From contig JAUCBJ010000751.1 in assembly GCA_032718475.1 (NCBI GenBank), positions 979 to 64,978 on the forward strand: a stretch of DNA of 64,000 nt, read 5' to 3'. The DNA is from Nemertoderma westbladi. Taxonomy: Eukaryota; Animalia; Xenacoelomorpha. This document shows, piece by piece, positions 11,444 to 64,000 of this stretch. The position numbers and the translations under genes were made by a program. The notes below the pieces were generated by a model. The model was not told the DNA's origin. It did not search any database and was given only the letters and a program-made list of their open reading frames with translations. The first letter of the stretch is position 1, and every line of letters begins with the position of its first letter.

Positions 11444-11453
11444 TTTCCCAAAC
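11444..11453 (-). promoter_or_regulatory. Putative self-priming PBS of element A (GTTTGGGAAA)
   Basis: First 10 nt after the 5' LTR; exact inverted copy at 11781-11790 inside the LTR. Confidence 0.7.
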
Positions 11454-12141
11454 TGTAAGAGCGGTTTCTATGCTCTTGTGTATAAAACAATAAGATGATC
11501 TATGTGATTGTAATATGTTCAACTATAGTTGGATTTCACCCAGTTTACACGGTTACGTCCCATAAAGAAGAATAATTTGTTTATTTGATTGGGAATTAGG
11601 AGCGTATTTATTATAGAAAATATATAAGATAATAATATACGATTATAAGCGGTAAGGGGTAATAAGATAACGGAAACATAAGAACATTAATACATAATAA
11701 GAGATCTAATAATATAAACGTAAAATATCGTAAGAGTCAAGAATACAAAGTAATAAAGAGTGTTAATAGGGGGAGTTTCCGTTTGGGAAACTGCGGAATG
11801 AGATGAACTATAGTGAATGAGTAATGTTGAGCACGGTAAGCTGTAGAAATACAGTAAAGTAATAATAGGGGTGACAGTGTGGTGGGCCTTAATTGGTTAA
11901 TGGGTAATAAAGGATTGTAGCGCAGTGGAGATACCTACCTAATGTGGCTGAACAGGAGTGAAGGGAAGAATACAGCTGTTTATCTGTATAGGATAAACGG
12001 CTGTGAATGGGGGCAGACAATAATGGTCGAATGAGTATGTTGGAGATGAGATAGATATTGGTTTGCAACAATAAGCTGGGAGAATGGGCGGTAATGTAAT
12101 GATAATATAATTTTAATGTTTGAGAGCGATCCGCCACTACA
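11454..12141 (-). repeat. 5' LTR of element A
   Basis: 688 bp, TG..CA; AATAAA on minus strand at 11607-11612 and 11580-11585. Confidence 0.96.
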
Positions 12142-15100
12142 CAGATAACTGTTTATAAACTAACCTTACTGGCAGAGAACTGTTTATAAACTAACCTTAC
12201 TGGCAGATAACTGTTTATAAACTAACTTTACTGGCAGAGAACTGTTTAAAACTAACCTTACTGACAGAGAACTGTTTATAAACTAACCTTACTGGCAGAT
12301 AACTGTTTATGAACTAACCTTACTGGCAGAGAACTGTTTATAAACTAACCTTACTGGCACATAACTGTTTATAAACTAACCTTACTGGCACATAACTGTT
12401 TATAAACTAACCTTATTGGCAGAGAACTGTTTATAAACTAACCTTACTGGCATATAACTGTTTATAAACTAACCCTACTGGCAGAGACCTGTTTATAAAC
12501 TAACCTTACTGACAGAGAACTGTTTATAAACTAACCTTACTGGCATATAACTGTTTATAAACTAACCCTACTTGCAGATAACTGTTTATAAACTAACCTT
12601 ACTGACAGAGAACTGTTTATAAACTAACCTTACTGGCAGATAACTGTTTATAAACTAACCTTACTGACAGAGAACTGTTTATAAACTAACCTTACTGGCA
12701 GAAAACTGTTTATAAACTAACCTTATTGGCAGATAACTGTTTATAAACTAACCTTACTGGCAGAGAACTGTTTATAAACTAACCTTACTGACAGATAACT
12801 GTTTATAAACTAACCTTACTGGAAAAGAGAACTGTTTATAAACTAACCTTACTGGCAGAAAACTGTTTATAAACTAACCTTACTGGTAGAGAACTGTTTA
12901 TAAACTAACTTACTGACAGAGAACTGTTTATAAACTAACCTTACTGGCAGAGAACTGTTTATAAACTAACCTTACTGGCAGAGACCTGAGTATAAACTAA
13001 CCTTACTGGCAGAGAACTGTTTATAAACTAACCTTACTGGCAGAGAACTGTTTATAAACTAACCTTACTGGCAGAGAACTGTTTACAAACTAACCTTACT
13101 GACAGATAACTGTTTATAAACTAACCTTACTGGCAGAGAATTGTTTATAAACTAACCTTACTGGCAGAGAACTGTGTATAAACTAACCTTACTGGCATAG
13201 AACTGTTTATAAACTAACCCTACTGGCAGAGAACTGTTTATAAACTAACTTTACTGGCAGAGAACTGTTTATAAACTAACCTTACTGACAGATAACTGTT
13301 TATAAACTAACCTTACTGGCAGAGAACTGTTTATAAACTAACCTTACTGACAGAGAACTGTTTATAAACTAACCTTACTGGGAGAGAACTGTTTATAAAC
13401 TAACCTTACTGGCAGAGAACTGTTTATAAACTAACCTTACTGACAGATAACTGTTTATAAACTAACCTTACTGACAGAGAACTGTTTATAAACTAACCTT
13501 ACTGGGAGAGAACTGTTTATAAACTAACCTTACTGGCAGAGAACTGTTTATAAACTAACCTTACTGGCTGAGAACTGTTTATAAACTAACCTTACTGGCA
13601 GAGAACTGTTTATAAACTAACCTTACTGGCAGAGACCTGAGTATAAACTAACCTTACTGGCAGAGAACTGTTTATAAACTAACCTTACTGGCAGAGAACT
13701 GTTTATAAACTAACCTTACTGGCAGAGAACTGTTTACAAACTAACCTTACTGACAGATAACTGTTTATAAACTAACCTTACTGGCAGAGAACTGTTTATA
13801 AACTAACCTTACTGGCAGAGAACTGTGTATAAACTAACCTTACTGGCATAGAACTGTTTATAAACTAACCTTACTGGCAGAGAACTGTTTACAAACTAAC
13901 CTTACTGACAGATAACTGTTTATAAACTAACCTTACTGGCAGAGAACTGTTTATAAACTAACCTTACTGGCAGAGAACTGTGTATAAACTAACCTTACTG
14001 GCAGAGAACTGTTTATAAACTAACCTTACTGGCAGAGAACTGTTTATAAACTAACTTTACTGGCAGAGAACTGTTTATAAACTAACCTTACTGACAGATA
14101 ACTGTTTATAAACTAACCTTACTGGCAGAGAACTGTTTATAAACTAACCTTACTGACAGAGAACTGTTTATAAACTAACCTTACTGGGAGAGAACTGTTT
14201 ATAAACTAACCTTACTGGCAGAGAACTGTTTATAAACTAACCTTACTGACAGATAACTGTTTATAAACTAACCTTACTGACAGAGAACTGTTTATAAACT
14301 AAACTTACTGGGAGAGAACTGTTTATAAACTAACCTTACTGGCAGAGAACTGTTTATAAACTAACCTTACTGGCTGAGAACTGTTTATAAACTAACCTTA
14401 CTGACAGATAACTGTTTATAAACTAACCTTACTGGCAGAGAACTGTTTATAAACTAACCTTACAGACAGAGAACTGTTTATAAACTAACCTTACTGACAG
14501 AGAACTGTTTATAAACTAACCTTACTGACTGAGAACTGTTTATAAACGAACCTTACTGGCAGATAACTGTTTATAAACTAACCTTACTGGCAGAGAACTG
14601 TTTATAAACTAACCTTACTGGCAGAGAACTGTTTATAAACTAACTTTACTGGCAGAGAACTGTTTAAAACTAACCTTACTGACAGAGAACTGTTTATAAA
14701 CTAACCTTACTGACAGAGAACTGTTTATAAACTAACCTTACTGACTGAGAACTGTTTATAAACGAACCTTACTGGCAGATAACTGTTTATAAACTAACCT
14801 TACTGGCAGAGAACTGTTTATAAACTAACCTTACTGGCAGAGAACTGTTTATAAACTAACTTTACTGGCAGAGAACTGTTTAAAACTAACCTTACTGACA
14901 GAGAACTGTTTATAAACTAACCTTACTGGAAGATAACTGTTTATGAACTAACCTTACTGGCAGAGAACTGTTTATAAACTAACCTTACTGGCACATAACT
15001 GTTTATAAACTAACCTTACTGGCACATAACTGTTTATAAACTAACCTTATTGGCAGAGAACTGTTTATAAACTAACCTTACTGGCATATAACTGTTTATA

Positions 15101-15797
15101 AACTAACCCTACTGGCAGAGACCTGTTTATAAACTAACCTTACTGACAGAGAACTGTTTATAAACTAACCTTACTGACAGAGAACTGTTTATAAACTAAC
15201 CTTACTGGCATATAACTGTTTATAAACTAACCCTACTTGCAGATAACTGTTTATAAACTAACCTTACTGACAGAGAACTGTTTATAAACTAACCTTACTG
15301 GCAGATAACTGTTTATAAACTAACCTTACTGACAGAGAACTGTTTATAAACTAACCTTACTGGCAGAAAACTGTTTATAAACTAACCTTATTGGCAGATA
15401 ACTGTTTATAAACTAACCTTACTGGCAGAGAACTGTTTATAAACTAACCTTACTGACAGATAACTGTTTATAAACTAACCTTACTGGAAAAGAGAACTGT
15501 TTATAAACTAACCTTACTGGCAGAAAACTGTTTATAAACTAACCTTACTGGCAGAGAACTGTTTATAAACTAACTTACTGACAGAGAACTGTTTATAAAC
15601 TAACCTTACTGGCAGAGAACTGTTTATAAACTAACCTTACTGGCAGAGACCTGAGTATAAACTAACCTTACTGACAGAGAACTGTTTATAAACTAACCTT
15701 ACTGGGAGAGAACTGTTTATAAACTAACCTTACTGGCAGAGAACTGTTTATAAACTAACCTTACTGACAGATAACTGTTTATAAACTAACCTTACTG
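12142..15797. repeat. 31-bp satellite array, block 2
   Basis: Same monomer and orientation. Confidence 0.98.
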
Positions 15798-18232
15798 ATG
15801 GACATGTAAGGCTATTTACATCAAGAGATGTAAATGCCACAGGCTCCTCTTGACTAGATTGTTCCCGGCTGGTAGTAAGATAGGATGGGACATATTGTCC
15901 TCCAGAAGTATAGGATGAATAAATGCATTGTCCGGCCGAGGAACTTCTAGGATATCTCTGAGAATACTGACTTAAGGAAGATGCAGTATTAAAAGGCGAT
16001 GTTGGGGGTATAAAGAGACCAGTTGTACAAAAATTACCTAGTGGGATAATTTCAGAAACTCTACTATTAATTAGCGCACTAGTGGGTCTTATAGGAGACG
16101 TAAGAGAAAAAATTGGAAGTTGAGATGACACTACTGACGTTGTTTCTACAGTGACAGGGTAGGAATGAGATTGACTAGACTGCAGATTATTTTGTGCTGA
16201 TTCATAGGAATCTGAGGCACTCACATTAACAGGTAGGCCCGTGGTTGCTATGGCAACAGGGTCGACTGGAGGGCGACTGGAGACTCTGATTGGATCCTTG
16301 TATTAACAGTCACATTATTGTTAAGATTACTTTCAGTTTGTACACCAATTGGTACGTCATACGTGGGAGATCTTTTTGGTGATTGTAATAGCGCAGAAGC
16401 TACATAATCTGCTTCTGCTTCTCCAAATTCAGGTGATTTCAACTCTAAAGCTTCTTCAAGTGCTGCAAGTGCAAGAGCATCGCGTAGGCCACGTTCCTTT
16501 GCCAAGCGAGAAATTTCTTTCTGTTGCCGCTCTGATTTTTGTAATAGCCGCTCTGATTTTTGTAATATCAATGTGTCAGCCTGATCTGCCTGAGCAGCTG
16601 CTCCTGACTGCTCGAGCTGTAGCAGGAGTAATTTTCGCTTGACTTTGGCACGATGAACTCGAACTGATGCGCTCGTCGAGGCTCGAGAATGTGCTGTAGA
16701 ACCAGAGTGAGTTGAAATTGTTCGATTACGTTTGAGCTCGCCAACTTGCAATTGTTCATGAGATGATACATACTGTGGAACATCTGAAGACACAACTACA
16801 ATAGGTATGGCGTTACTCCGACATGTCTGGGTCTGAGTCACGGTCTGCTCATTGCTATTAATATATTCGCGAATGTCATTGAGTTTAGATTCAAGGTCTG
16901 ACAGTACAGTTACTGATTGTGCAGCTAGCTCACGTGACACATCAGAAAAACCAAATCTTTCGAAATCGAAAGTTGATTTTTCATAGTGACTACACAAAGA
17001 TTTGTATACATTAATACAAGAATTAAATATAGAATCGATATTAGTAGGGTCGAATGTAGCAGACCTTTGAATGGTAAACTCATTGAAACGTCGTGTAAAA
17101 TGATCCTTATAACCAGCAATCGTTCTCTTTACGTGAGTTAGATTAGGTACTGAACTCTCACTAGACATTTCTACGGTAGGATTTACAACAGATGCAACAG
17201 GAGTTGGTGAGATAACGTTTTCAATACGTGTAGATGTAAGAGGTGACTTACCAGACTGTGTGGATACATCAGATTCCGAAGCTGAATGAATTTCGTCGTC
17301 CATTTGAACACCTTTGTTGTCCATATTTGTATCCAAATTAAATAAAGGTGTCGTCTTCAAAATTAAAGTCTAGCTACGGTAGTTAGAATCGCCTAAATAG
17401 ACTGTAATACATACCAACTTGGCTACAAAAGCTTAGTAACGTGGTATAGTAAAGAATTACTAAGAAATAAAATAATTAATATACAATTTAATTTATTTAT
17501 TTATAATTGTAAATTTCATAGAGTTTTATTTGAGTTTTCCCAAACTGTAAGAGCGGTTTCTATGCTCTTGTGTATAAAACAATAAGATGATCTATGTGAT
17601 TGTAATATGTTCAACTATAGTTGGATTTCACCCAGTTTACACGGTTACGTCCCATAAAGAAGAATAATTTGTTTATTTGATTGGGAATTAGGAGCGTATT
17701 TATTATAGAAAATATATAAGATAATAATATACGATTATAAGCGGTAAGGGGTAATAAGATAACGGAAACATAAGAACATTAATACATAATAAGAGATCTA
17801 ATAATATAAACGTAAAATATCGTAAGAGTCAAGAATACAAAGTAATAAAGAGTGTTAATAGGGGGAGTTTCCGTTTGGGAAACTGCGGAATGAGATGAAC
17901 TATAGTGAATGAGTAATGTTGAGCACGGTAAGCTGTAGAAATACAGTAAAGTAATAATAGGGGTGACAGTGTGGTGGGCCTTGATTGGTTAATGGGTATA
18001 AAGGATTGTAGCGCAGTGGAGATACCTACCTAATGTGGCTGAACAGGAGTGAAGGGAAGAATACAGCTGTTTATCTGTATAGGATAAACGGCTGTGAATG
18101 GGGGCAGACAATAATGGTCGAATGAGTATGTTGGAGATGAGATAGATATTGGTTTGCAACAATAAGCTGGGAGAATGGGCGGTAATGTAATGATAATATA
18201 ATTTTAATGTTTGAGAGCGATCCGCCACTACA
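15797..18232 (-). mobile_element. Truncated copy of element A (5' LTR 17546-18232, leader and gag N-terminus)
   Basis: Near-identical to about 9716-12141; 11-bp tandem duplication at about 16261-16282 frameshifts gag; broken end joins satellite with a GA microhomology. Confidence 0.95.
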
Positions 18233-21200
18233 GAGACTTACTGGCAGAGAACTGTTTACAAACTAACCTTACTGACAGATAACTGTTTATAAACTAACCT
18301 TACTGGCAGAGAACTGTTTATAAACTAACCTTACTGGCAGAGAACTGTGTATAAACTAACCTTACTGGCAGAGAACTGTTTATAAACTAACCTTACTGGC
18401 AGAGAACTGTTTATAAACTAACTTTACTGGCAGAGAACTGTTTATAAACTAACCTTACTGACAGATAACTGTTTATAAACTAACCTTACTGGCAGAGAAC
18501 TGTTTATAAACTAACCTTACTGACAGAGAACTGTTTATAAACTAACCTTACTGGGAGAGAACTGTTTATAAACTAACCTTACTGGCAGAGAACTGTTTAT
18601 AAACTAACCTTACTGACAGATAACTGTTTATAAACTAACCTTACTGACAGAGAACTGTTTATAAACTAAACTTACTGGGAGAGACCTGTTTATAAACTAA
18701 CCTTACTGGCAGAGAACTGTTTATAAACTAACCTTACTGGCTGAGAACTGTTTATAAACTAACCTTACTGACAGATAACTGTTTATAAACTAACCTTACT
18801 GGCAGAGAACTGTTTATAAACTAACCTTACAGACAGAGAACTGTTTATAAACTAACCTTACTGACAGAGAACTGTTTATAAACTAACCTTACTGACTGAG
18901 AACTGTTTATAAACGAACCTTACTGGCAGATAACTGTTTATAAACTAACCTTACTGGCAGAGAACTGTTTATAAACTAACCTTACTGGCAGAGAACAGTT
19001 TATAAACTAACTTTACTGGCAGAGAACTGTTTAAAACTAACCTTACTGACAGAGAACTGTTTATAAACTAACCTTACTGACAGAGAACTGTTTATAAACT
19101 AACCTTACTGACTGAGAACTGTTTATAAACGAACCTTACTGGCAGATAACTGTTTATAAACTAACCTTACTGGCAGAGAACTGTTTATAAACTAACCTTA
19201 CTGGCAGAGAACTGTTTATAAACTAACTTTACTGGCAGAGAACTGTTTAAAACTAACCTTACTGACAGAGAACTGTTTATAAAATAACCTTACTGGAAGA
19301 TAACTGTTTATGAACTAACCTTACTGGCAGAGAACTGTTTATAAACTAACCTTACTGGCACATAACTGTTTATAAACTAACCTTACTGGCACATAACTGT
19401 TTATAAACTAACCTTATTGGCAGAGAACTGTTTATAAACTAACCTTACTGGCATATAACTGTTTATAAACTAACCCTACTGGCAGAGACCTGTTTATAAA
19501 CTAACCTTACTGACAGAGAACTGTTTATAAACTAACCTTACTGACAGAGAACTGTTTATAAACTAACCTTACTGGCATATAACTGTTTATAAACTAACCC
19601 TACTTGCAGATAACTGTTTATAAACTAACCTTACTGACAGAGAACTGTTTATAAACTAACCTTACTGGCAGATAACTGTTTATAAACTAACCTTACTGAC
19701 AGAGAACTGTTTATAAACTAACCTTACTGGCAGAAAACTGTTTATAAACTAACCTTATTGGCAGATAACTGTTTATAAACTAACCTTACTGGCAGAGAAC
19801 TGTTTATAAACTAACCTTACTGACAGATAACTGTTTATAAACTAACCTTACTGGAAAAGAGAACTGTTTATAAACTAACCTTACTGGCAGAAAACTGTTT
19901 ATAAACTAACCTTACTGGCAGAGAACTGTTTATAAACTAACTTACTGACAGAGAACTGTTTATAAACTAACCTTACTGGCAGAGAACTGTTTATAAACTA
20001 ACCTTACTGGCAGAGACCTGAGTATAAACTAACCTTACTGACAGAGAACTGTTTATAAACTAACCTTACTGGGAGAGAACTGTTTATAAACTAACCTTAC
20101 TGGCAGAGAACTGTTTATAAACTAACCTTACTGACAGATAACTGTTTATAAACTAACCTTACTGACAGAGAACTGTTTATAAACTAACCTTACTGGGAGA
20201 GAACTGTTTATAAACTAACCTTACTGGCAGAGAACTGTTTATAAACTAACCTTACTGGCAGAAAACTGTTTATAAACTAACCTTACTGGCAGAGAACTGT
20301 TTATAAACTAACTTACTGACAGAGAACTGTTTATAAACTAACCTTACTGGCAGAGAACTGTTTATAAACTAACCTTACTGGCAGAGACCTGAGTATAAAC
20401 TAACCTTACTGGCAGAGAACTGTTTATAAACTAACCTTACTGGCAGAGAACTGTTTATAAACTAACCTTACTGGCAGAGAACTGTTTACAAACTAAGCTT
20501 ACTGACAGATAACTGTTTATAAACTAACCTTACTGGCAGAGAACTGTTTATAAACTAACCTTACTGGCAGAGAACTGTGTATAAACTAACCTTACTGGCA
20601 GAGAACTGTTTATAAACTAACCTTACTGGCAGAGAACTGTTTATAAACTAACTTTACTGGCAGAGAACTGTTTATAAACTAACCTTACTGACAGATAACT
20701 GTTTATAAACTAACCTTACTGGCAGAGAACTGTTTATAAACTAACCTTACTGGCAGAGAACTGTTTACAAACTAACCTTACTGACAGAGAACTGTTTACA
20801 AACTAACCTTACTGACAGAGAACTGTTTATAAACTAACCTTACTGACAGAGAACTGTTTATAAACTAACCTTACTGGGAGAGAACTGTTTATAAACTAAC
20901 CTTACTGGCAGAGAACTGTTTATAAACTAACCTTACTGACAGATAACTGTTTATAAACTAACCTTACTGACAGAGAACTGTTTATAAACTAACCTTACTG
21001 GGAGAGAACTGTTTATAAACTAACCTTACTGGCAGAGAACTGTTTATAAACTAACCTTACTGGCTGAGAACTGTTTATAAACTAACCTTACTGACAGATA
21101 ACTGTTTATAAACTAACCTTACTGGCAGAGAACTGTTTATAAACTAACCTTACAGACAGAGAACTGTTTATAAACTAACCTTACTGACAGAGAACTGTTT

Positions 21201-25776: not shown

Positions 25777-26013
25777 TGTGGTGATAATATATGGCTCGCC
25801 CCATGGACACCCTGGGACGAGGGGGGAGAGACCTACCGGTGTTGGACAGTCTGTATGTCGGTGTTAGTCAGTCAGTACCACCAGTTTATCTAGGCTACTT
25901 ACTGCATGCCCTGACCGGTCCACAGAGGACCCTATTATATATGATCACAGTATCTGCTACAGACAAAGGTTTTGTTCGTCTGCTGCCTCGCAGCAATAGT
26001 AGATACGCCCACA

Positions 26014-26031
26014 TGGCGCAGTGTGTAGGAT
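26014..26031 (+). promoter_or_regulatory. tRNA primer-binding site, probably tRNA-Ser
   Basis: TGGCGCAGTGTGTAGGAT directly after the LTR; resembles the complement of animal tRNA-Ser 3' ends (recalled, not searched). Confidence 0.7.
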
Positions 26032-26042
26032 AACTTGGGCCC

Positions 26043-28661
26043 ATGCCGCCTAAATCCAAAGGGAAGATCACGTCCCCGCCCACGGCGGACAGCAGCGACG
26101 GCGATGAAACTCTAGAAGCCCGAGGCGGCAGGCGCGCCCCTATCCGAATGGACGACCTCGCGCGAATCCTCGCCCAACAGCAGACTGCTATGGCTCAGCT
26201 GCTGGCGCAACAGCAGGAGGACGCCAACCGTCGCCAGGAGGCTGCGGATGACCGCCTACTTCAACAACAGGCGGCCGCAGACGACCGCATCGCTAAACTC
26301 CTCGCGGCTTTACAACCCGGCATGGCGGCGGCCGCCACACCGGAACTACCGACGACCCAACCCACGTACGCGGGGGCCGTCACGAACCCGGTTCCCCGAC
26401 GCCGGGTAATCGACATCTCGACGATGGAGAAGATCGACGTGGACGTCGAGTTCTCCATGTTCCGCCGGTGGAGACAGGCTTGGCGGGTCCACGCCCACCG
26501 ACAACAGGTCGCTACGTTCCCGCGAGCAGAGCAGGTTTATGCTCTCGTTGCTGCCCTCGGTAGCGGCCTACAGGAGACCATCCGCGTCACCCTACACGTG
26601 GACATCGACGCGGACGATACAACCACAGAGACGGTCCTCGATGCACTCCAGGGCCACCTCCGCGCCAAGAGGAGTATCGCGATCGACGCGATCAAGTTCC
26701 ACGAGCGCCGGCAAGGCGCGACCGAGGGATTCGATTCCTTCCGGGTGGCCCTGGAGGATCTCGCAGACACTGCGGAGCTCTGTGGGAACTGCCGCGACCG
26801 GCAGATCGTTACCCAGATCCTAGTGGGTCTCCGATGTTCAGAGACCCGGACGGAACTCCTCAAGGTTCTTCCTCAACTGACCCTCGAGGACTGCGTGAGG
26901 ATCGCGCAGAGCGTGGAAGCCAGCGAATGGAACGACTCGATCCTCGCGAGCGGGAAACCAGTAAACCTCATCACCCGACCCTGCGTGGCGGAACCCTAGC
27001 GGCCGCAGTTGCGGCAACTGCGGCCGGGAACCCCATGAGGCGGGCTCGGAATGCCCCGCCAAGGGGGTCAAGTGCCACGGCTGTGGCAGGACGGGGCATA
27101 TCAAGCGGATGTGCCGGTCCCGATCCGCCACCAAGAAGAGGGTGTCCACAGTGTACCACTGCCAGAGTATTAGCAGCGTTGCCAACAATCAGGAAACAGC
27201 CTGCAAACTCTCTTATATCGCGGTGGGCCTGACGGACTCCGGGATCGGGAACCTCAAGGGGACGGTTCGTCACTCCCTCCCGGACAGTGGTGCGGCCGCT
27301 AACATCTTTAACCAGGGACTGTTTCTCCGGTTCGGAGGGCGACTCGACGACCTCCTCCCGCTTCGAGATGACGACAAGTTCGAGGCGGCCAACCGACTCC
27401 CCATGGCGGCCGTGGGGAGGTACCCAGTGGAGATCAACTACTGCGGGACGACAGCGACCACTGAGCTGGTCATCTCTCCTGAGTCCGACGGACTGATCCT
27501 CTCGAAGAAGTCCATCCAGGACCTGGACATCCTCCCGCGCACCTTCCCGGCGCCCCTACACAGCCGCGGAACCGTCGCTTCTGTTGCTCCGTCCCCGGCG
27601 ATCCGCTCCCGGGACAATCTCCTCCGCGAGTTCAGCGACGTGTTTGACAACGACTCCGCGCCTCTTCCAATGATGCATGGCCCGCCCATGCGTATCCAGC
27701 TGAAGGACGGGGCCAAGCCGTTCCACGTCAACGGCGCAAGACCTGTCCCGTTCGCGATGCGGGATGAGGTGAAAGAACTCCTCGACAAGCTAGAGCGACG
27801 GGAAGTCATCACCCGGGTCGAGGAACCTACGGAATGGGCCCATCCGATGACGGTGGCGCCTAAACCCAACGGAGGACTGCGACTCTGCGTGGACCTCCGC
27901 CACCTAAACTCGCAGGTCCGACGCCCCTATTACCCGACGCCGAATCCACGGACCGCAGTCGCCGGAGTCTCCACGACTGCAAAGATTTTCTCCGTGTTCG
28001 ACGCAGCCAGTGGCTACTGGCAGGTTCCCCTCAATGAGGAATCCCAACTCCTCACCACCTTCGCGACTCCCTGGGGCCGGTACTGTCACACTCGTAGTGT
28101 GATGGGGCTGATCTCGTCCGGCGACGAGTTTAACCGTCGAGGCGACGACGCCATCCAGGGACTTCCTAACCTCATCAAGGTTGTAGACGATGTACTCCTC
28201 TACAACGATACAATGGAGGAACACATGGAGAACATCGCGAGGTTTATGGAGCGGTGCCGGACCTACGGGATCATGTTACACCCGGGGAAGGTTCAGTTTG
28301 CCCAGACCGAGGTTCGGTTCGCTGGGTACCTCGTCGGCGCCTCCGGGATAAAAGCCGACCCTGAGAAACTGAAGGCGATCGCCGGCTTCCCCTGCCCTGG
28401 GAACATCACCGATCTACGGAGCTTCCTCGGACTGGTGGAGCAACTCGCTCCGTTCTCAGCAGACATCGCTGCCGCGATGTCCCCGCTACGTCCCCTCCTA
28501 AGCACGAAGGCGACCTTCATCTGGACGGTGGACCACAAACGGGCCTTCGAGGCCACCAAGCTGGCTCTGACGTCACCGCCGGCCCTCGTCCCGTTCGACA
28601 CGACCCGGGAGACCCGCCTAGTGACAGACGTGTCCCGGCTGAAGGGCCTCGGCTACGCCCT
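26043..28661 (+). pseudogene. Mag-like gag-pol with one frameshift near 26960-27000, truncated
   Basis: Gag (RDRQIVTQILVGL); CGNCGREPHEAGSEC and CHGCGRTGHIKRMC knuckles lie in the pol frame; protease LPDSGA; RT LRLCVDLR, DAASGYWQ, VVDD; RNase H start LVTDVS. Confidence 0.9.
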
Positions 28662-37359: not shown

Positions 37360-37366
37360 CAGGGTA

Positions 37367-38083: not shown

Positions 38084-39260
38084 TGTAAAAGCTTTTGCGG
38101 GATTAGCTAGTCATTTTTTCCCCGCAAAGTACTCTGTAGATGTTTTAACGGACATAAAAGCCGTTTCCTTACTGTACCAGTATTTTATTGGACATAAAAA
38201 GCTATTTTTCTGTATGTGTACTTTGGCGGACATAACTAGCAATCTTATGCCGCAATACGCGATAATACTCTCTACACAGTGTAGTTCAGGTTACGACATC
38301 TATCAGCTGATTTGGTGTACTCGTGGCATTTTTCTTTGTTCAGGCCCACTCTGTGCAATCACTCGACCAATCAGCGTGATTTTCAGTTTATTACACAGAG
38401 GCCTCCGGGAAATCGCGCAATGCATTATGGTTTATGTTTACCTTTTTTCCTAGGCCCAGAAGACCGGCTTTGGAATTTCTGTGTTTTCAGGCTTTAGCCC
38501 AACATTAGTAGGCTTAATTATAGAACGTATATCTGTTATCACGCAACATAACTCAAACCAATGATTACCTTTTAACAATCAAAACACCGCTTTTATACTG
38601 CTATTTACTGTCGGTTATTCATTATATTAGTTGATGGAATATTATATTTGGAATATCGATAAATAATTACCAACCCTCAATCTTCTTGATATACTGAAGG
38701 TAAGAGAGACAGGTTACATATAACGATTGCGACTTACATTAGAGTGGTTTTGAAGTGAATCTAATGCTATTTCATAGGCACTACAAGTATCAGTCGTTGT
38801 TCTCTTTATATGTGACTAAAATTAGTGAAGGTCGGCAGATCGGTGTGCAGTATTGTGCAGTAGTGTGTATGATTGAGACTGATAACAAAGCATCTCCTAA
38901 AGAATGCGCCATATACGTGAATCTATAGCCATCCCATTGCGTCTAGTTTAAGTCATAGCTCTGCTTACATATTTAGAGCGCCACGTCCTAAAGGAACTGT
39001 TAATATTTCCCGAAAGTGAACAATATTTGTCAGAGATTATATATTACGATCAGTCGAATAATACAGTAGGCTTACACCGCAATAAGATTAAGCTTCCGAA
39101 TCCAGTCTCCCGGGTATATCCAGCGGGTGAATGGTTGCGCATAGACTGGCTTCGGCTAATGTAGTGTATCCAATACTCGTCATAGGCTAAAGTCGATTTA
39201 TTATCTAGAAGACATCCTAATTTGGCAGGTTAAACTGCTAAAGGTCTGAAAGCGCGAACA
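38084..39260 (+). repeat. 5' LTR of element B
   Basis: Direct repeat of 49044-50220. Confidence 0.96.
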
Positions 39261-39270
39261 ATAACAGATA
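39261..39270 (+). promoter_or_regulatory. Putative self-priming PBS of element B (ATAACAGATA)
   Basis: First 10 nt after the 5' LTR; exact reverse complement TATCTGTTAT at 38530-38539; no TGG-type PBS. Confidence 0.7.
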
Positions 39271-41177: not shown

Positions 41178-44100
41178 ATGTCTGCTACTAAGCAAAACCT
41201 GTCAGACAGTCTCTTAGATACAACCATCTGTGACCCAGATAGGAGTGTGGAACGTGTGAGACCGAAGTTCAACTCACCTCCTACTGTAAGAAAGGTCATC
41301 CCTCCAGTAGTAATATCAGACCCCAGGCTAGTCCAACACCGTAGGTCTATTATAGGCACTAGAGCTCAGGTCAAGCGAGACCAAGAAGCAGCGGAACAGC
41401 AGCAACATCCGAGCCGAGAACTTATTGCTCAGCGGTTCGACCGCTCCAGTAGTGCAGATACTGTAGAGCTGACACCCGAGTGCGGAGCAAAGATGGTGGA
41501 TGCGGTTTATTCGGATCCCCTTCTCATCCTTCCTGCAGCCGAACTCACTAGAGTATTGATTGCGGTGGAGGAACACCAGATTGATTGGGCAAGAAGTAAG
41601 CGATCGACCAAGGATAGTTATGCGGGATATACAAAGGAAGAACTGAAGTCTATTGTCGAGTCGCAATGGAACTTCCCCGCACCCGGACTCCCGTTTGACT
41701 TATCGGAAGCTGCCTGGGAAGACATACATAGGATGGGAGTAACAAAGGAAACCATCGATCCAGCTGTATGGAAGAGGTCAGCAGCCGGATACGTACAGGG
41801 ATTCTTCAGCTCTATGGAGCGATTAGAGGAACAACTGTTTAGACAACCACAAGGACCTCAAGAGCAGGGAGAGCTGCTTTATCAAGTTAGAGAAAGAATT
41901 CTAAGAATCAGACTAATCTTATCTGCCATTGAGGAGGCTTCGAAAAGAAGACAAGACACGTCGTTGCAAGTTGCCATAAAGACTTGGTTACAGCGGGTGA
42001 GTCTCCAAGTTCAAAGAACTGTCCCGTGGAAATCTCAGTTAGATGAGCGCTCAACCCTTGGAGAATCAACAGACGCTACCTTTTCCCAAGTGGAAAGTGA
42101 AGCGACAGCAGAGAAACCGCATAAGAGGGATGCTATTGACATCTATCTGTCAGACTATCAACGCTTTGTAGGAGATTAAGAGTTGAGGAGAAGGCTGGAG
42201 GGGCTTAGCCCTAATAGTGAAGGAGCCAAACTTGTGTTGGATGCAATCGATGTGGATATGAGAGCTGCGAACCAAGCTAAATTTGATGAACGCCTCCGCA
42301 TCACTAGAGTCCAAGAAGAACAAGTAAAGAAAAAACGTATAGAAGATAGAAAGACAGCAGCAGCGGCAGTGGCAGTGGCAGAAGCGGAAAGAAAAGCGGC
42401 AGAAGTGGATATAAAAGCGGCAGAGGCAGTGGCAGAGGCAAAAGCGGCAGCGACAGAGGCAAAAGCGGCAGCTGCAGCAGTAGAAGCGGAAAGAAAAGCG
42501 GCAGCGGCAGAGGCAAAAGCGGCAGCTGCAGCAGTTGCAGCGGAAAGAAAAGCGGCAGCGGCAGAAGCGGAAAGAAAGGCGGCCGAAGCGGAAAGAAAAA
42601 TAGCAGTGGCAGAAGCAGAACGAAGAGCAGCTGAAGAGACCACCCAACTAGAGTTAGAAAATATTCAAGAGAATCAAGACTGCATAAATAAACAGTTAAC
42701 AGCTAGTAATATGCAGATGATGAATCAATCTACTCCCAAAAGGCAGGGATATACATCATCTGAAGAAGGCGATACCACCGATCCTGAAGGCGGAGGAAAT
42801 AGATCTCGTCTAGGTAGGCGTAGAAGGACATCTCACCGTCACAAATTGCCTGATTTGCCCCCAGCTGTTAAAAGGCAACTAACTAACACAGACTTAGGTA
42901 GTACAGAACCCACAGACCAAATAATTAAAATAGAAAGACTCCCTACTATAGTAGATGAGCCTGAAATAATTAGGCCTGTTCTTGAAATCACCCCTTTGGT
43001 GATAGAGACACCTGTGCTCCCAGAACCTATCTCTAAATTCCCTCTTCACAGCACTAAGCTACCTGTGCCCCACAGAACCACCCCTGAAAATGTTCATGTC
43101 CTGGACTCCGAGCGAAATATTAACGATTTGTCGCCGTTGTCCCTCGTCCGCCCGCTACAACGTTGGCGCCTCCCGCTTCGGCGGTCGAGTGGGTAGATGA
43201 GGGACGACGGGAGATGGGTCTCCTGCTCGGGCAGCTGAGGGAACACCGTTCCCGCTCCTCTCAGCAAGTCCAGGAGATGGAGGGGACTGTGCAGCAGTTA
43301 AAGGGAACAATTAGAGAGAGTAGGTTAGAGTTGCAAGAAGTGCAGCAAAGTATCGCGTTAGAACGCGATAAATTAGTAAATACACAAAAGGGTATACCAC
43401 CACCCCCTGTAACAATGTGTCAACCTGTTAGGTCTGAAGTATTTCATGCGCAAGGTGTGGAGCCTACACGCATCTATACTGCTAGTGAAGTGGAAACTCC
43501 TATACTAAACCCTATTAAGGGTAATCATAAACCTGTTGACAATGATATTCCATATAGACTGGATAATAACCCGAGAAATTTATATACCGATAACTCGATA
43601 TTAAATAACACGATGGCCCAAGAAAGTTTTACGCGTCAAATGGCTAGAACCGAAGCCCGTCAAGCGGTAAAGGTGGGAGAGATAGTCAAGTTCAATGGAG
43701 ATGAGATGAAATGGTTACCTTTTAATGAATATTACAAAGATAACATACAGAACTCTGTACTATCTAACGGAGAGAAACTTAGATTCCTCATCGAGTGCTT
43801 GGAAGGATCTCCCAAGTTAATGGCGTTAAAGTTTATTGGACATCCAGATGGATTAAGACAAGTTTGGGATACACTGAACATCAGGTATGGTAATAGAACT
43901 AACATAGCTAGGTATTTATATGCAAAATTAATGGCGCCCCGAAAGTTTCTTAGCAGCGGGATTATAGAGATTTCAGACGAGATTCAGGAGATCTGTAGAC
44001 AACTAGATTGGTTAGGTAAGTCTCATGAATACCAGAATTCTATGGTTGTAGGAGCCTTAGCATCTAATTTGCCCAAGGGCGGAGGAGGTACATGCTGGGA

Positions 44101-45952
44101 CAAGACAGTGTTATATATGATGGAACAACAACGAAGAGATCCTACCATGGCTGATCTCATGTCATTCTTAGATGGAGAGGTAAAATTACAGCTCCTAAAG
44201 CAGTCCAGAGAGAAGACACCGGAAAATAAGGTAAGTGAGAAACCCGTTTCTAGGAGAAAGGTAATACCAGTGTGTTATACAGACGACGGCGAAAGCCAGG
44301 CTTCTCAAGAGGAAGACAGCGGGAAAGACACTGAAAGATCTTACTATGACAACACAGCGCCTAAGGACGTAAGTAAATTCAAGTCTCGGACCAATGACAG
44401 GAGAGAACAGGTAAGAAAAACTCCTCCTACGTCTCCTAAGAGAATTCAGGTAAGAAAGCCTGAAGAAAGAACGAGTGTGCACAATGTTATTCAAAATAAG
44501 GTAAGTAACATCAAACCGAAATGTGTGCTATGTGACGGGACCCACCGTTTGAATATGTGTGATGAATTCCTAAAGAAATCATTAACGGAGAGACGGGAAG
44601 TCATGTGGGATAAGCGGTTGTGTTATAATTGCCTCAGACAAGGACACCAAAGGCGAACCTGTTACTCCGACACAAGGTGTGCAAAGTGCGGTGCGAAACA
44701 TCATATCTTATTGCACACTGAATTCGAGCGAAACAGCCAGAGTCAGGTAAGTGATTCTGAACTACATGTCCAATTCAGTGATGTGAACGACACTGACCAA
44801 AGTTCTGAGATGGAAGGATTCTATACGGATGAATTCTCCGACGAAAATGAATCCTGTTACATGATAAATACCGCAGTGTATCGAGCACTCACGTATGAAA
44901 AAGACACCGACAGCGACTTCACCCTAACTAATCCTGATCGACAACCATCTTGGAAAGCGCCAACTTCCAATGTAGGAATCCGAGAATTTCCTGTAGTACA
45001 ATTAAGGGTCCACGGACCTAAAAGGAGTTATATAGTGAACGCCCTCCTTGACTCCGGTAGCACAGGAACATTCATCGACAAAGAACTAGCCGAAGATATC
45101 TTTGCTGGACAACCCAAGTTCCGAACTAAGCTTAACATGTCAGGAATTATGCAGGTTTGGAAATCTACCGTAATAGCTGATTATTATGTAGGCGCATTGT
45201 CCACCCCCCAGGATGAACTAGGAGAACACAGCCTAAGGTCAGTAAAAATGGTAGCGATAAAGAACTTCGCTACCAGCCAAGTGGAACCTTATAACTGGGA
45301 TGAGGACGATTTCACCCAGCAGTTTGAAATACCTAGATTCAACACCAATTACCCTGGAGTTCAAATACTCATCGGTCAAAACACGCATGAAGCGCTCGAG
45401 ACATTGGAGAAACAGCCTGCTCAACCGCAACCATTACAAGCTTATGCGGGAAGAACTAGAGTGGGTTGGTACTTTACTGGCCCTTCCCGTAGAACTCTTA
45501 TGGAAAGATTACCAAAAGAACAGGTATATCAATTAAGTGAACGGGAAGTGGAGAGCAGTGAAGTTGACGACCCAACTGAGAGAACACCATACTCCTCAGA
45601 TAATGACGATATCAACTCCAATGTAGATCAATGGAGACATTGCCCCGAGACGATCAATCTAGCCGACATCGCTTCCAGAGGAGCAACTCCTCAAGAACTG
45701 ATAGATACTCCAGCGTGGTTAGGTGGACCCGACTTCCTAAGTAAAGAAGATGAATGGCCTTCTCATCTTACCCCGGCTAAGATTAGACAGGCCAAGGGAG
45801 CGGAGAAAGTAACACAACAACTCAATCGCCCAGCTGGTCGTTTATATTTACTGGAAAGAGACCGAAAACTGTCTGGAAACTATGGAAGGCAACACACTCT
45901 TCCCACGACTACCTCCCTAATCCAACAAATATCTAGGGACTCCATAACGTAA
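41178..45952 (+). pseudogene. Gag-protease of element B with fused RNase H and integrase remnants; one in-frame stop (42177-42179) and one frameshift (43124-43196)
   Basis: KFNGDEMKWLPF gag core; CVLCDGTHRLNMC, CYNCLRQGHQRRTC, CAKCGAKHHILLH; ALLDSGS; QWRHCPETINLADIASRG; RPAGRLYLLE; no YxDD or DDE core. Confidence 0.9.
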
Positions 45953-49043: not shown

Positions 49044-50220
49044 TGTAAAAGCTTTTGCGGGATTAGCTAGTCATTTTTTCCCCGCAAAGTACTCTGTAGA
49101 TGTTTTAACGGACATAAAAGCCGTTTCCATACTGTACCGGTATTTTAGTGGACATAAAAAGCTATTTTTCTGTATGTGTACTTTGGCGGACATAACTAGC
49201 AATCTTATGCCGCAATACGTGATAATACTCTCTACACAGTGTAGTTCAGATTACGACATCTATCAGCTGATTTGGTGTACTCGTGCCATTTTTCTTTGTT
49301 CAGGCCCACTCTGTGCAATCACTCGACCAATCAGCGTGATTTTCAGTTTATTACACAGAGGCCTCCGGGAAATCGCGCAATGCATTATGGTTTATGTTTA
49401 CCTTTTTTCCTAGGCCCAGAAGACCGGCTTTGGAATCTCTGTGTTTTCAGGCTTTAGCCCAACATTAGTAGGCTTAATTATAGAACGTATATCTGTTATC
49501 ACGCAACATAACTCAAACCAATGTTTACCTTTTAACAATCAAAACACTGCTTTTATACTGCTATTTACTGTCGGTTATTCATTATATTAGTTGATGGAAT
49601 ATTATATTTGGAATATCGATAAATAATTACCAACCCTCAATCTTCTTGATATACTGAAGGTAAGAGAGACAGGTTACATATAACGATTGCGACTTACATT
49701 AGAGTGGTTTTGAAGTGAATCTAATGCTATTTTATAGGCACTACAAGTATCAGTCGTTGTTCTCTTTATATGTGACTAAAATTAGTGAAGGTCGGCAGAT
49801 CGGTGTGCATTATTGTGCAGTAGTGTGTATGATTGAGACTGATAACAAAGCATCTCCTAAAGAATGCGCCATATACGTGAATCTATAGCCATCCCATTGC
49901 GTCTAGTTTAAGTCATAGCTCTGCTTACATATTTAGAGCGCCACGTCCTAAAGGAACTGTTAATATTTCCCGAAAGTGAATAATATTTGTCAGAGATTAT
50001 ATATTACGATCAGTCGAATAATACAGTAGGCTTACACCGCAATAAGATTAAGCTTCCGAATCCAGTCTCCCGGGTATATCCAGCGGGTGAATGGTCGCGC
50101 ATAGACTGGCTTCGGCTAATGTAGTGTATCCAATACTCGTCATAGGCTAAAGTCGATTTATTATCTAGAAGACATCCTAATTTGGCAGGTTAAACTGCTA
50201 AAGGTCTGAAAGCGCGAACA
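49044..50220 (+). repeat. 3' LTR of element B
   Basis: Direct repeat of 38084-39260. Confidence 0.96.
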
Positions 50221-51119
50221 TGGTTGACTATGTTCTACGCATGTCCTTAGATCATCATAATGATGATGGGGTGATGATAACTCCACCTACTGGCTCCAGA
50301 AGTCGAGGAAATCCTGCCAAGTACCTAACTGATCTAGACTTTGCTGATGACTTAGGAGTACTCTCAGAATCATTAGAGGGAGCCCAACGGCTCCTCAGCT
50401 CATTAGAACATGCTGCTTCTAGTGTTGGTCTTTTTATTAACTCCAGAAAGACCAAAATTCTGACAGTTAACTTTGAAAGTCCTCAGCAAGTCTCTGATCG
50501 GATGAGCATAAGCTCAAAGGATGGTATGCTTGAGCATGTGGACGACTTCTGTTACCTGGGATCATGGATCCGGAAGTCAGATGAGGACCTTCGAATACGT
50601 AACGGAATGGCATGGGCAGCCTTGAATAGGCTTTCCAGGATTTGGAAGTCACCGAGAATTAATCGGAAACTTAAGGTCCGATTATTTAGAGCAGCAGTAG
50701 TTCCAGTACTCCTCTACGGGAGTCCATGCTGGGCTCTAACTGCTGAGGACACCAAATCTCTGGATGGCACATTCACAAGAATGCTATGCCGGGTTCATTG
50801 TGTCAAGTACAATGCACACATCTCCAACCAGACACTATATAACATTGGAGGTGTATCATTGGTTCCCCCAAGCTTGACACTAGAACAAAATCGCCTCCGC
50901 TTTGCAGGACATTGCTTTCGCCGTGACGACCAGCCAGTGCATAATCTTGTACTTTGGCAGCCTCATGGAGTGAATAAGCATGGTGGACAGCCCATGACTT
51001 TCTTGAGACGCATCTTAAAGGACACTGGCCTTAAAGATGCGGATGATCTAGCAAATGTCATGGGTGATAGGGAGTTGTGGCAGTGCAATTTTGTTGACAA
51101 GCCAGCACAGCATTCTTAA
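50221..51119 (+). pseudogene. LINE reverse transcriptase, C-terminal part
   Basis: LDFADD, FCYLGS, PVLLYGS, RLRFAGHCFR as in RTE-type LINEs. Confidence 0.92.
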
Positions 51120-60784: not shown

Positions 60785-61361
60785 GTTAGTTTCTTAACCA
60801 GTAATAATTTGTAACATAATTATTTGTCGTGTTGAAGTCCTTCTGTTTTATTATTATGTTTCTATTTATTTGTATGGAATTAATTTCGCACTACCAAATC
60901 GCCAGGCCGACATATTTCCTAACTTTATATCGCAGTGCAACATTATTTATCAGTACGCCATATACCCTACGCCATATATTTACTATGTATTTCAGTATAT
61001 CCAGTATGTCACCGCGTCATTATTAGGTTGTTCTAGAAAGTTTAAGTGCAAAACTACAAATAATTCCCCACAAATAAATAAAATTAGATTCGCCATTGTT
61101 CATAATTACCACATTAAATCTTTTACGGCCCTCGTTTTATTATTTCACTAAACAAAATCCCTCGTGCCGTAACGCTATAATGTGCTATTTTATGAGCAAC
61201 GACGTAATATAGTTAGTATTTAATTGCTCTAAATTTTGGGTCGAAATGCCGGCGTTTAATGATTTCCCTAGAGAACTCCAACCCAACCACTACTGATCAG
61301 ATGTGGGCAGAGGATTTACAGAATTTAATAAACAATTTCAATTAATAATATTTCCTAACAG

Positions 61362-61988
61362 GTTACAGAGTTGGAAGAGTTAGTTTCCATGTTACATGAT
61401 ACAGAGATAGTGAATTCATCCATTACACTGTATCAGATAATGGCTCCTCTGCTATTAAAGCAGAAAGATGGGGCGAAGATTCAACAAAGAGTTGATGGAT
61501 CTGTTGACTTCTATCGAAACTGGGATGAATATGTTGAAGGATTTGGCGACCCGAATACCAATTTTTGGTTGGGGTTGGAGGCGATCCACAATGTGAGTGA
61601 AGGCGGGGTGAAGTTGAGAGTCGATTTGTGGTTCAACAACGAACACAAATACGCGAAATACGACAACTTCTCTATCGGATCAGCTGCAACTAATTATCGC
61701 CTACAGGTATCCGGTTACCATGGTACTGCTGGTGACTCATTGGAGTTTCACAACGGTCTCCCATTCTCTACCAAAGACCGCGATAATGACAGGTGGGACG
61801 ACGTCAACTGCGCCGTACGACGTACTGGGGCGTGGTGGTACCACGAGACTGTACAAGGACGATACAAGGAATGCGCGTACAGTAACTTGAACGGAGAGTA
61901 TGGTGGGGGGTGGTCGCAAGGACCTTGTTGGTATTATTTTACTGTAAGGAATCCGGCTTCTCGAGTTGAAATGAAGATTTGGATTTAG
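61362..61988 (+). CDS. Last exon: fibrinogen-related domain (FReD; ficolin/tachylectin/angiopoietin-like)
   Basis: IQQRVDGSVDFYRNWDEYVEGFG, FWLGLE, AKYDNF, GTAGDSL, FSTKDRDND, GAWWY, SNLNG, EMKI. Confidence 0.93.
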   Translation, partial: VTELEELVSMLHDTEIVNSSITLYQIMAPLLLKQKDGAKIQQRVDGSVDFYRNWDEYVEGFGDPNTNFWLGLEAIHNVSEGGVKLRVDLWFNNEHKYAKYDNFSIGSAATNYRLQVSGYHGTAGDSLEFHNGLPFSTKDRDNDRWDDVNCAVRRTGAWWYHETVQGRYKECAYSNLNGEYGGGWSQGPCWYYFTVRNPASRVEMKIWI

Positions 61989-62784
61989 TAAAACTGTAAG
62001 TTTTATATAAAATTACTAAATAATTTCAATAGAGTTGCGTTGAGGATTATAAATAATATTAATATAATGTAAAAAAATAATAATATATGATAAATGATAG
62101 AAAATAAAAAAATATACTTTATTATTATTTGATTAAATTATATTTGTGTGAAAAGTTCCTGATTAATAATAATGAGTTCCGGAATAAATATCGTTTTTTA
62201 CTATAAAATTATTTACTTTAACGTTTTTATTCTTTATTTTGCAGTTTGAATTCCCAATAAGTTTTAGAAGAGACTGAATCTTGGCTATTCTACTATATGT
62301 TACCAGTTTATATGTGTGATGGTTATGGGTTATTGGTTTATGTTTGGTTAATATTTACAATATATTAATAAATTATAGTTGCAATAACTTAACTTTATTT
62401 ACTTAACTTGCTGTTAGACCAGGAGGGGCCGGTTGCATATAAATTAACCTTAGCTAAGGTGCACCTTTAACTCAAGTGTTGCCTTAAATATTTCAACATC
62501 CTTATCAGTTGTTGTCTGCCTAATATTACCTAATATATTTTATAGAAACATTTTGAGAACGTCGGTGGAGGTCCGAGAGCAAAATGTGGACTTATCAAAA
62601 TCAGCTGATATAATTTAACAAATTAATTGTTAATTAAACTTCTTTATTACCTAATAATATACAAATAAATCCTATTTTATTTTAACGCCTCTGTTTGAAT
62701 ATCGCCAGTTATTGGGTTTCTGGAACGGTTCCTGTGCCAAAGTGAGGGAGCGAAGAGGAGTCCTAAATGAACCGGAATCAGGGG

Positions 62785-64000
62785 CTGTCATACCAACCCG
62801 GATATATTCCGAGCGATCAGTCGCCCTGACTACGGGGGTCGGGTAGACACGGGGGAAGCGAGGGAGTGGGGTCGGAATGATTCCGAGGTGCGCGGCCCGG
62901 AATACGGGAGGGATATCAAGCGATATCCCCGCAGAGTCGTACTTTATAAATAAAAATATACAACATAAAAAAACCGGTTAAAACAATAACTTTGATAAAA
63001 TTTGAAAATAATTACAAAAAATAAACAAATCGACAAACATGCTAATATTAATACAACCAACCCGAGAATAAGTCGGCCGTTAATTAGATTGGCATTAACG
63101 GTGTATTGATTACCCATCCGTGTTGCCAAGCAATAATTCTCTCAAGGTAATAGATGTTGCCATTCGCTACTCCATTGCGGTACATTAATTGATTGGAGTT
63201 GCATTTAATGTGGGATAAATAACCATATTATACATTTTTGTTTTGAGACATTGGCGCTAATTTACCCACCTGGGGGGGGGGGGGGGGGGGGGGGGTTATT
63301 GTTAGCTTATCATCCCGCTAACACCCCATAAAGTTAAGCCGATAAGCAATATTGGGAGCCACGAGATTGGGTAATTAACCAACTCGTGCCATCCCAATAA
63401 GAATGGGAAGGAGAAGCACACAATTAGGGTCAGGGGCCAAACCCCTAACCCAGAGAGAACAGGTGGAGTGAACGGGAACACTCCAAAGGGCGCAACAAGG
63501 GTATCAACCAATCAGAGGGGGGAAAGGCATCGATTAGGTAGAGTAACAAGGCCAACCGTGCAATATAGCCACTTGGCAGTAATCATATCAATTCAGTTAT
63601 CTCAGTGCAATACTGGTGCTTGTTTAGGTTACATAGTTTAGCTAGGGAAGGACCGGGACTTTAGTTACCGTATCCCGCCTTCCGTATACAACAACATATT
63701 ATCTCATATCTATACCCATATCTATATCTGTATACCCAAATATTATATATGACGAACAGCACAAACTCATTTACTCTTTATACACGGCGGGGACGCGTGA
63801 ACTAAAACCGGATAAACCGGGATGCCTCTTGGATCACGTCACAGTAACTAAATCAGAGCTGCCGCCCTAGCTAACTAAACTCAGCAACCACCAGCCACCA
63901 ATCTGCAGAAGAGGATGAGTCGGTCAGGTGACGACCCGACGCGGACCCCGGACGAAGAGCTAACGATCCGCGAGGCCGCAACCAGGCGATACAGGCCCAC
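62785..64000 (+). mobile_element. Probable 5' end of another LTR retrotransposon (element D): LTR ends at 63843, leader, possible gag start at 63914
   Basis: ..CACGTCACA end coincides with the end of the related copy at 58543; GC-rich open frame MSRSGDDPTRTPDEELTIREAATRR runs off the window; left boundary is a guess. Confidence 0.5.

Follow-up and report, generated by a model that had tools for sequence, protein, structure and literature searches.

Analysis of the LTR elements in a 64,000-nucleotide stretch of the Nemertoderma westbladi contig JAUCBJ010000751.1 (the window) suggests that element A and the majority of its scorable relatives are devoid of a tRNA-type primer site, and that a stretch internal to their own LTR, in most cases joined by predicted splicing, is likely to prime reverse transcription. 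Elements B and D of the same window fit a contiguous form of this arrangement, with less support than the clade of A. The initial annotation had proposed Tf1-like self-priming for A, B and D: the self-priming part of this proposal is strengthened by covariation across many families, whereas the idea that the first bases of the RNA form the primer does not extend to 22 of 30 relatives, where the paired stretch straddles a predicted exon-exon joint, so that the primer would be internal and would need splicing.

Self-complementary sites in elements A, B and D

Element A is a BEL/Pao element (Belpaoviridae), as judged from its proteins: it encodes the full BEL-type set of Gag, protease, RT, RNase H and integrase in that order (PF03564, PF05380, PF18701), and possesses a polypurine tract, an LTR pair that is 99.9% alike and a flanking 5-bp target duplication. 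On a tree of the RT-RNase H region it forms a long branch with coral and echinoderm proteins as neighbours (41-46% identity); a search of viral contigs recovered no BEL relative. Its features are:

2211..2898, minus strand: 3' LTR, with one difference from the 5' LTR; predicted intron and complementary site (2538-2547) retained
3936..5036, minus strand: integrase, encoded in a separate frame that overlaps the Gag-protease-RT-RNase H frame (PF18701, weak rve)
5014..11277, minus strand: Gag-protease-RT-RNase H frame, 2087 aa (PF03564, PF05380)
11444..11453, minus strand: primer-site position, 10 nt, without a TGG start
11454..12141, minus strand: 5' LTR, 688 bp, TG..CA ends
11580..11612, minus strand: two AATAAA signals (LTR 530 and 557), 3' of the complementary site
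11781..11790, minus strand: complementary site, candidate primer 3' end (LTR 352-361)
11791..11938, minus strand: predicted intron of 148 nt (LTR 204-351), from splice-site motifs
17536..18232, minus strand: truncated second copy, LTR (17546-18232) and primer site, 99.8% alike

The 10 nt right after the 5' LTR (11453-11444) pair with LTR positions 352-361 (window 11790-11781). This complementary site lies directly 3' of one of 10 acceptor-like sites in the 688-nt LTR, namely the acceptor-like CAG that ends the predicted intron, and the sole strong upstream donor is situated 148 nt ahead of it. Predicted exon 2 opens with all 10 paired bases; since the match is not perfect across the predicted junction, splicing is not required for the match in A itself. 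If both AATAAA signals are used, the complementary site would fall in the R region. Four DNA contig sets aligned to this LTR listed variants at neither the complementary nor the primer site, and contained no joint such as an exact intron loss would leave; contigs of this kind can show that a joint is present, not that it is absent. The second copy sits in a 6-kb local duplication and is no independent case.

Elements B and D present the following features:

38084..39260, plus strand: 5' LTR of B, 1177 bp
38530..38539, plus strand: complementary site of B (LTR 447-456), contiguous
39261..39270, plus strand: primer-site position of B, 10 nt, pairing with 38530-38539
43124..45952, plus strand: Gag-protease frame of B (PF03564), continuing into an RNase H-region remnant
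49044..50220, plus strand: 3' LTR of B
63300..63843, plus strand: LTR of D, 544 bp, very high copy
63660..63668, plus strand: complementary site of D (LTR 361-369)
63844..63852, plus strand: primer-site position of D, 9 nt, pairing with 63660-63668

Element B has LTRs that are 98.9% alike, with TG..CA ends and a 5-bp target duplication, and is a BEL/Pao element on the basis of PF03564, the protease and the RNase H-region remnant; neither RT nor integrase was found inside it. The BEL/Pao assignment in the initial annotation is borne out for A and B, but not the union of A, B and D in one lineage; the Gag-protease regions of A and B are only about 26% alike, and B has no RT with which to place it on a tree. 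Its complementary site is not at a junction, no AATAAA is present downstream of it, and no splice junction lengthens the match (best 7 nt). Element D, only putatively BEL/Pao, is known from one LTR and 157 internal bases, its second LTR and coding part lying beyond the window; the LTR, bounded by a depth step and TG..CA ends, measures 544 bp and not the approximately 1000 originally given. In the junction and cross-family comparisons D was scored with a provisional 1000-nt LTR, and there no splice junction lengthened its match (best 5 nt), and foreign LTRs matched its primer site at 9-10 nt in 4 of 29 pairings. One DNA variant alters position 5 of this primer site, the LTR partner of the variant copy not being visible; the LTR end had no match among viral contigs.

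All six motifs that the initial annotation had paired lie where it placed them, as complements of 10, 10 and 9 nt in A, B and D, and their excess over chance is upheld when 20,000 copies of each LTR are generated with a second-order Markov model. The chance of such a complement is 0.0028, 0.0091 and 0.0036 respectively at offset 0, and 0.0046, 0.031 and 0.011 with offsets 0-5 permitted, B being the weakest case of the three. None of these sites starts with TGG in tRNA register within the first positions; a self-complement is present instead. The element chosen earlier as a control behaves as such:

25777..28661, plus strand: truncated Gypsy-type element (Mag in the initial annotation), TGG-starting tRNA-type site at 26014

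Its TGG site follows the CA at 26013, where its LTR end was inferred for want of a 3' LTR, and its best self-complement is 5 nt. No tRNA genes were found within the 64-kb window.

The primer duplex of A or B is not favoured by predicted folding, which is unreliable over long range. In A, the mean pair probability is 0.01-0.03 when the leader is long or spliced, and only an RNA start near LTR 345 favours the duplex (0.60); both partners occupy local hairpins, whose summed energy equals that of the duplex. The corresponding values are 0.00 for B and 0.34-0.46 for D. Pairing beyond the core is not significant in two of the elements (p 0.71 for A, 0.78 for B); in D, bases at about 63635-63648 are predicted to form a second helix with those at about 63864-63876 (extension p = 0.012).

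Junction-spanning and contiguous complements among relatives of A

Among the 30 scorable relatives of A, 22 possess a 10-16 nt match that emerges solely once a GT..AG-bounded segment of the LTR is removed; in five others the match is contiguous, in one it is incomplete, and two display a TGG tRNA-type site without such a match. A perfect match of 10-16 nt is found in 27 of the 30, against a mean of 5-6.5 nt in shuffled controls (p at most 0.013 each). For 17 of the 30, the LTR end was placed visually, with knowledge of the match; in the 13 where it came from comparison of the 5' and 3' copies, eight are of the junction type, three are contiguous and two are of the TGG type without a match. The complement starts 0-5 nt after the LTR, is 9-16 nt long and changes in step between families. 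The earlier observation that pairing is kept while sequences differ can be generalized as covariation: the 30 matched sites comprise 25 distinct 10-mers, with positions 1-9 Watson-Crick paired in all, and at least 10 nt is reached with the own LTR in 29 of 30 cases versus 9 of 840 cross-family pairings with a foreign LTR.

The predicted introns of these relatives are 66-423 nt long. All four consensus positions after the GT are matched by 15 of the 22 donors, the donor list having been broadened after cases had been seen; as background, 23 of 411 GT sites in the same LTRs fit at least two of the four. The spliced duplex is better than both unspliced sides in 21 of the 22 junction cases, and 3-8 exon-2 bases are paired in all 22, which rules out splicing arrested after its first step, with exon 1 alone as primer. 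In each of the 30 matched cases the duplex ends in AC or AU on the primer side. Both LTRs keep the intron wherever this was checked (5 of 5). On the RT-RNase H tree the contiguous elements are interspersed with those of the junction type, and the placement of the two TGG-type elements, L027 and L044, relative to the self-complementary clade has a support of 0.05. Direct repeats were also considered as the source of the complements; they could account for families with a palindromic core and fail for the non-palindromic ones.

A new set of six elements was scored with a rule fixed beforehand. Four of these score 11 nt (p at most 0.006), and the other two are near-misses: position 3 is mismatched in both LTRs of L090, and L081 requires a donor that falls outside the fixed rule. 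Between L088 and L089, which are 78% alike inside, three adjacent exon-1 bases differ, as do their three partners.

A candidate priming route and its alternatives

These observations are consistent with a route in which transcription would start upstream within the LTR, the host spliceosome would excise the intron and thereby join the two halves of the primer, and the exon-exon joint would pair with the primer site. A cut would then be made just past the AC or AU that closes the duplex on its 3' side, exposing a 3'-OH; the cutter would probably be the RNase H of the element itself, by analogy with Tf1. RT would extend from this end, copying U5 and R, and plus-strand synthesis would return a copy of the primer end to the primer site, so that both would stay in step. 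Families with an unbroken primer probably arose via intron loss. Retention of the intron in both LTRs demands an extra assumption: either the 3' R of the packaged RNA stays unspliced, or the primer is a separate short spliced LTR transcript. We lean, by a little, towards the broader view that in much of the aquatic BEL/Pao radiation the tRNA has been replaced by a spliceosome-built LTR primer, with R spliced in its 5' copy, or in a small transcript of its own, and unspliced at the 3' end, such that host splicing gates replication and repeated intron loss gives rise to ready-made primers.

A start of the Tf1 type, in which the RNA of A (perhaps also of B and D) begins just 5' of the site and its first 10-12 bases serve as primer without splicing, would suit the contiguous matches in A, B and D and the one start near LTR 345 that favours the duplex of A; the bases ahead of this site also read as what we take to be an initiator-like motif. 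It is nonetheless quite unlikely, as it leaves the 22 relatives with a GT..AG-broken match unexplained, TATA-like boxes lie 100-170 nt ahead of the donor in several LTRs, and the second helix of D sits 5' of the site and so needs an upstream start. Pairing, rather than priming, is what can be read from sequence, and it might instead belong to a leader structure that serves regulation or packaging, for instance as a check on splicing, with a tRNA fragment or another small RNA as the actual primer. The start of the site resembles what is presumably a tRNA T-loop motif in seven families. For this reading, which we regard as very unlikely, half-tRNA priming in Copia offers a parallel (PMC6317226); against it, the match always starts 0-5 nt past the LTR, where priming must begin, its primer-side end is invariably AC or AU, 25 different 10-mers would require equally many host primers, and no TGG-type element shows the pairing.

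It is possible, if on the whole unlikely, that the matches of B and D are due to chance and that the mechanism is confined to the clade of A. B has a p of 0.03 with offsets, no folding support and a distant relationship to A, and D has a match of 9 nt, a length that foreign LTRs attain in the pairings noted above. Against chance, both complements lie at offset 0 (p 0.009 and 0.004), their ends follow the AC/AU pattern of the relatives, and the second helix of D is significant. Self-priming by an internal, usually splice-joined stretch in A and its relatives remains our preferred and likely interpretation, with B and D fitting the contiguous form on less support.

Relationship to known self-priming and tRNA-primed elements

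The precedent for self-priming with RNase H cleavage is Tf1 (PMC10085805, PMC4600332). Tf1 and Tf2 of Schizosaccharomyces pombe, Tj1 and the Tf1/sushi group are Ty3/gypsy chromoviruses, in which the 5' end of the RNA acts as primer within a three-duplex 'pretzel'. As in that group, where the complement is approximately 11 nt, the site that directly follows the 5' LTR can pair with the LTR of the same element, and no tRNA-type site is present. Unlike in that group, the candidate primer here is internal, mostly split by a predicted intron and offset by 0-5 nt from the LTR end, and the BEL domains of A and B place them in another superfamily. No pretzel is predicted for A or B, and the second helix of D is on the other side, subject to the unreliability of long-range folding. 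Self-priming has also been predicted from sequence in the Copia TAR lineage (Houba, Osr-1) and Gypsy Tcn1, indicating that the mechanism is not limited to one superfamily; these are plant elements, and a splice-joined primer is not described in the available part of that source (PMC6317226).

In the ICTV profile of Belpaoviridae an 18-nt primer site for tRNA-Arg or tRNA-Gly is given, and BEL/Pao replication is described as little understood, with tRNA priming assumed (PMC8742986). Element A resembles this family in its LTRs, Gag (PF03564), protease, RT, RNase H (PF05380), integrase (PF18701) and polypurine tract, and differs from the profile, together with B and 27 of the 30 scorable relatives, in having a self-complement in place of the tRNA site (PMC8742986). 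No published report of a splice-built self-primer in BEL/Pao was found in the literature searched. If the proposed route is correct, transposition would be coupled to host splicing control, the elements would be out of reach of tRNA-fragment silencing, and the failure of tRNA-based annotation to recover their primer site would be accounted for; it would also pose the question of how an element with an RNA stage in its cycle keeps an intron in each of its LTRs, and bear on whether self-priming predates tRNA priming as the ancestral state. BEL/Pao would then be a third LTR superfamily with self-priming, by a route unlike that of Tf1 in that splicing builds the primer.

Self-complementary putative primer sites in the window

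The window contains a 31-bp satellite into which LTR elements have inserted. Its relevant features are as follows.

1-2209 and 12142-32223: the satellite, several hundred copies, hosting both copies of element A and the Gypsy-type element
11454-12141 and 2211-2898, minus strand: LTRs of element A, one difference in 688 bp; the 5-bp target duplication consists of satellite-unit sequence
9716-15797 and 15797-21898: 6.1-kb tandem duplication, 95.5% alike, yielding a second, truncated A copy
25777-28661, plus strand: truncated Gypsy-type (Mag) element
32877-35872 and 47586-49043: extra 3' reading frames without a Pfam family in B and a truncated relative (3' ends 89% alike), one with a weak zinc knuckle
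37355-38083 and 50221-51119: non-LTR RT gene split by the B insertion, PF00078 on both sides
38084-39260 and 49044-50220: LTRs of element B, 98.9% alike, within a LINE
39265-39857: 300-bp tandem duplication in B, beginning inside the primer site, with an incomplete complement in the second copy
61359-61988, minus strand: 209-aa frame resembling a fibrinogen C-terminal domain, probably a host exon
63300-63843: single LTR of element D, placed by DNA depth, with 157 internal bases in the window

Element A is a young BEL/Pao element, because its LTRs are nearly identical, it is flanked by a target duplication, and its coding part has a frame of 2087 aa, in which PF03564 and PF05380 are recognized, overlapped by an integrase frame that contains PF18701. 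The host is an animal, and the named relatives of the A RT-RNase H come from corals, anemones and echinoderms (41-46%). The coding part of B comprises a PF03564 Gag and a protease (about 26% alike to the Gag-protease of A), continuing into a remnant of the RNase H region; RT and integrase were not found within this element. The initial annotation had described the bases directly after the LTRs of A, B and D as exact reverse complements of sites within the same LTR. This observation is confirmed, with the first 10, 10 and 9 nt pairing to LTR positions 352, 447 and 361, respectively. For offset 0, Markov controls put the chance at 0.0028, 0.0091 and 0.0036; if offsets 0-5 are permitted, it becomes 0.0046, 0.031 and 0.011. 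The Mag element, offered there as a tRNA-type control, indeed has a TGG site and a self-complement of at most 5 nt.

Junction and contiguous complements in relatives of A

An alignment joining A to 58 homologues, out of the 120 listed, led to 80 metagenome loci, of which 30 were scorable, i.e. an LTR could be paired with the sequence following it; the other 50 were family duplicates, had no LTR end or had unclear ends (e.g. L045), and among the 80, L015, L028 and L067 have non-TGG sites without an LTR to test. Each site, taken at offsets 0-5, was scored by the length of its best uninterrupted complement, both in the LTR as it stands and in every version of the LTR joined at one possible GT..AG junction. 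Matches of 10-16 nt present only across a junction were recovered in 22 of the 30 and contiguous matches of 10-13 nt in five. At 13 loci (eight junction, three contiguous, two TGG) the LTR end came from comparison of the 5' and 3' copies; at the other 17 it was placed visually in knowledge of the match, and the permitted donors were picked after cases had been seen, so that these 17 are biased. The shuffled controls that had been proposed as a check gave means of 5-6.5 nt, with p <=0.013 for each of the 27 matched relatives. L013 reaches 7 nt, the donor region being missing from its sequence, and L027 and L044, which belong to a single family, have a tRNA-type TGG site behind a 5-nt spacer and a self-complement of 4-5 nt.

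Together with A, B and D the matched relatives give 30 elements, whose sites comprise 25 distinct 10-mers. Pairing is kept while the sequences differ: the own LTR gives at least 10 nt in 29 of 30, versus 9 of 840 pairings with foreign LTRs (families with a common core grouped). In a second collection of 20 loci, six had scorable ends, one was dropped as belonging to the L038 family and the others were without an LTR end. Under the unchanged rule four of the six reach 11 nt, three of them across a junction and one contiguously (p <=0.006). L090 scores 8 nt (p 0.07), its position 3 being mismatched and 10 of 11 bases paired. L081 scores 7 nt (p 0.24), or 11 nt once a GTAT donor is permitted. Between L088 and L089 three adjacent exon-1 bases differ, and so do their three partner bases. 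The contigs that carry these animal BEL/Pao elements (L081-L100) are binned with bacterial metagenome-assembled genomes, which points to host contamination of those bins. A tree was built from 78 RT-RNase H sequences, with 17 family duplicates and short fragments excluded. Contiguous and junction forms are intermingled on it, A branches off early with a long branch, and the TGG family is placed with very low support (0.05).

Splice signals, folding and a possible priming pathway

LTR signals were judged by splice and promoter consensus motifs. All four consensus positions after GT are present in 15 of 22 matched donors; among the 411 GT sites of these LTRs with at least two such positions, 23 have all four. 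Pyrimidine-rich tracts precede the acceptors, to which the filter itself contributes. The predicted introns span 66-423 nt, with 3-9 paired bases in exon 1 and 3-8 in exon 2. In 21 of 22 cases the spliced duplex exceeds both unspliced sides in stability, and both LTRs keep donor and acceptor in all five elements checked. On the primer side, 26 of the 30 elements end in AC and the other four in AU. The LTR of A has a strong donor at 204 and AATAAA at 530 and 557, and its site starts at the first base past an acceptor-like CAG, one of 10 in 688 nt; by these signals A appears to have the architecture of the junction relatives, except that all 10 paired bases lie in predicted exon 2. The B site is contiguous and away from any junction, with a possible intron (LTR 617-694) downstream, and that of D is likewise contiguous, a second helix being predicted on its 5' side (p 0.012).

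What is observed directly is the complementarity, its position, its covariation and the splice signals, and the likely explanation runs as follows. The predicted intron would be spliced out, the primer would pair with the primer site within the particle, RNase H, on analogy with Tf1, would cut 3' of the duplex, and RT would extend from the cut primer. Plus-strand synthesis would return a copy of the primer end to the primer site, which could be why the two covary. Strong-stop DNA would extend over no more than the segment past the cut; hence the progeny-LTR intron would derive from the 3' R copy, necessarily unspliced, or else a short spliced LTR transcript might prime an unspliced genome in trans. 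The contiguous form would result from intron loss.

Predicted folding counts against this pathway: the A duplex has a probability of 0.01-0.03 with long or spliced leaders and of 0.60 for an RNA starting near LTR 345, and the values are 0.00 for B and 0.34-0.46 for D. The LTR site of A (11770-11792) and its primer site (11436-11454), both on the minus strand, each form a 7-bp local hairpin; the two hairpin energies add up to the energy of the duplex, and the pair could possibly constitute a switch. The self-priming proposed in the initial annotation is supported in part, the relatives lending it weight and extending it to predicted splice-built primers. It is likely in A, while B and D are weaker cases, self-priming being modestly favored in D and evenly poised in B.

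Relation to known priming systems

The TGG site of the L027/L044 family (L027:56-80; L044:18-40) resembles a tRNA-Tyr type, unlike the tRNA-Arg or tRNA-Gly types that ICTV gives for Belpaoviridae. No report of BEL/Pao self-priming or of a splice-built primer was found in the literature searched, and subscription papers, Repbase notes and supplements may contain one. By term counts, PBS, tRNA and priming are absent from the main text of the BEL surveys PMC554778, PMC3118150, PMC6238403 and PMC8556966, and PBS has only a generic mention in PMC8220671. The primer site recorded for Belpaoviridae is complementary to tRNA-Arg or tRNA-Gly (PMC8742986), and self-priming is described for Tf1/sushi, Tj1, Tcn1 and Copia TAR (PMC10085805, PMC4600332, PMC6317226, PMC3601003).
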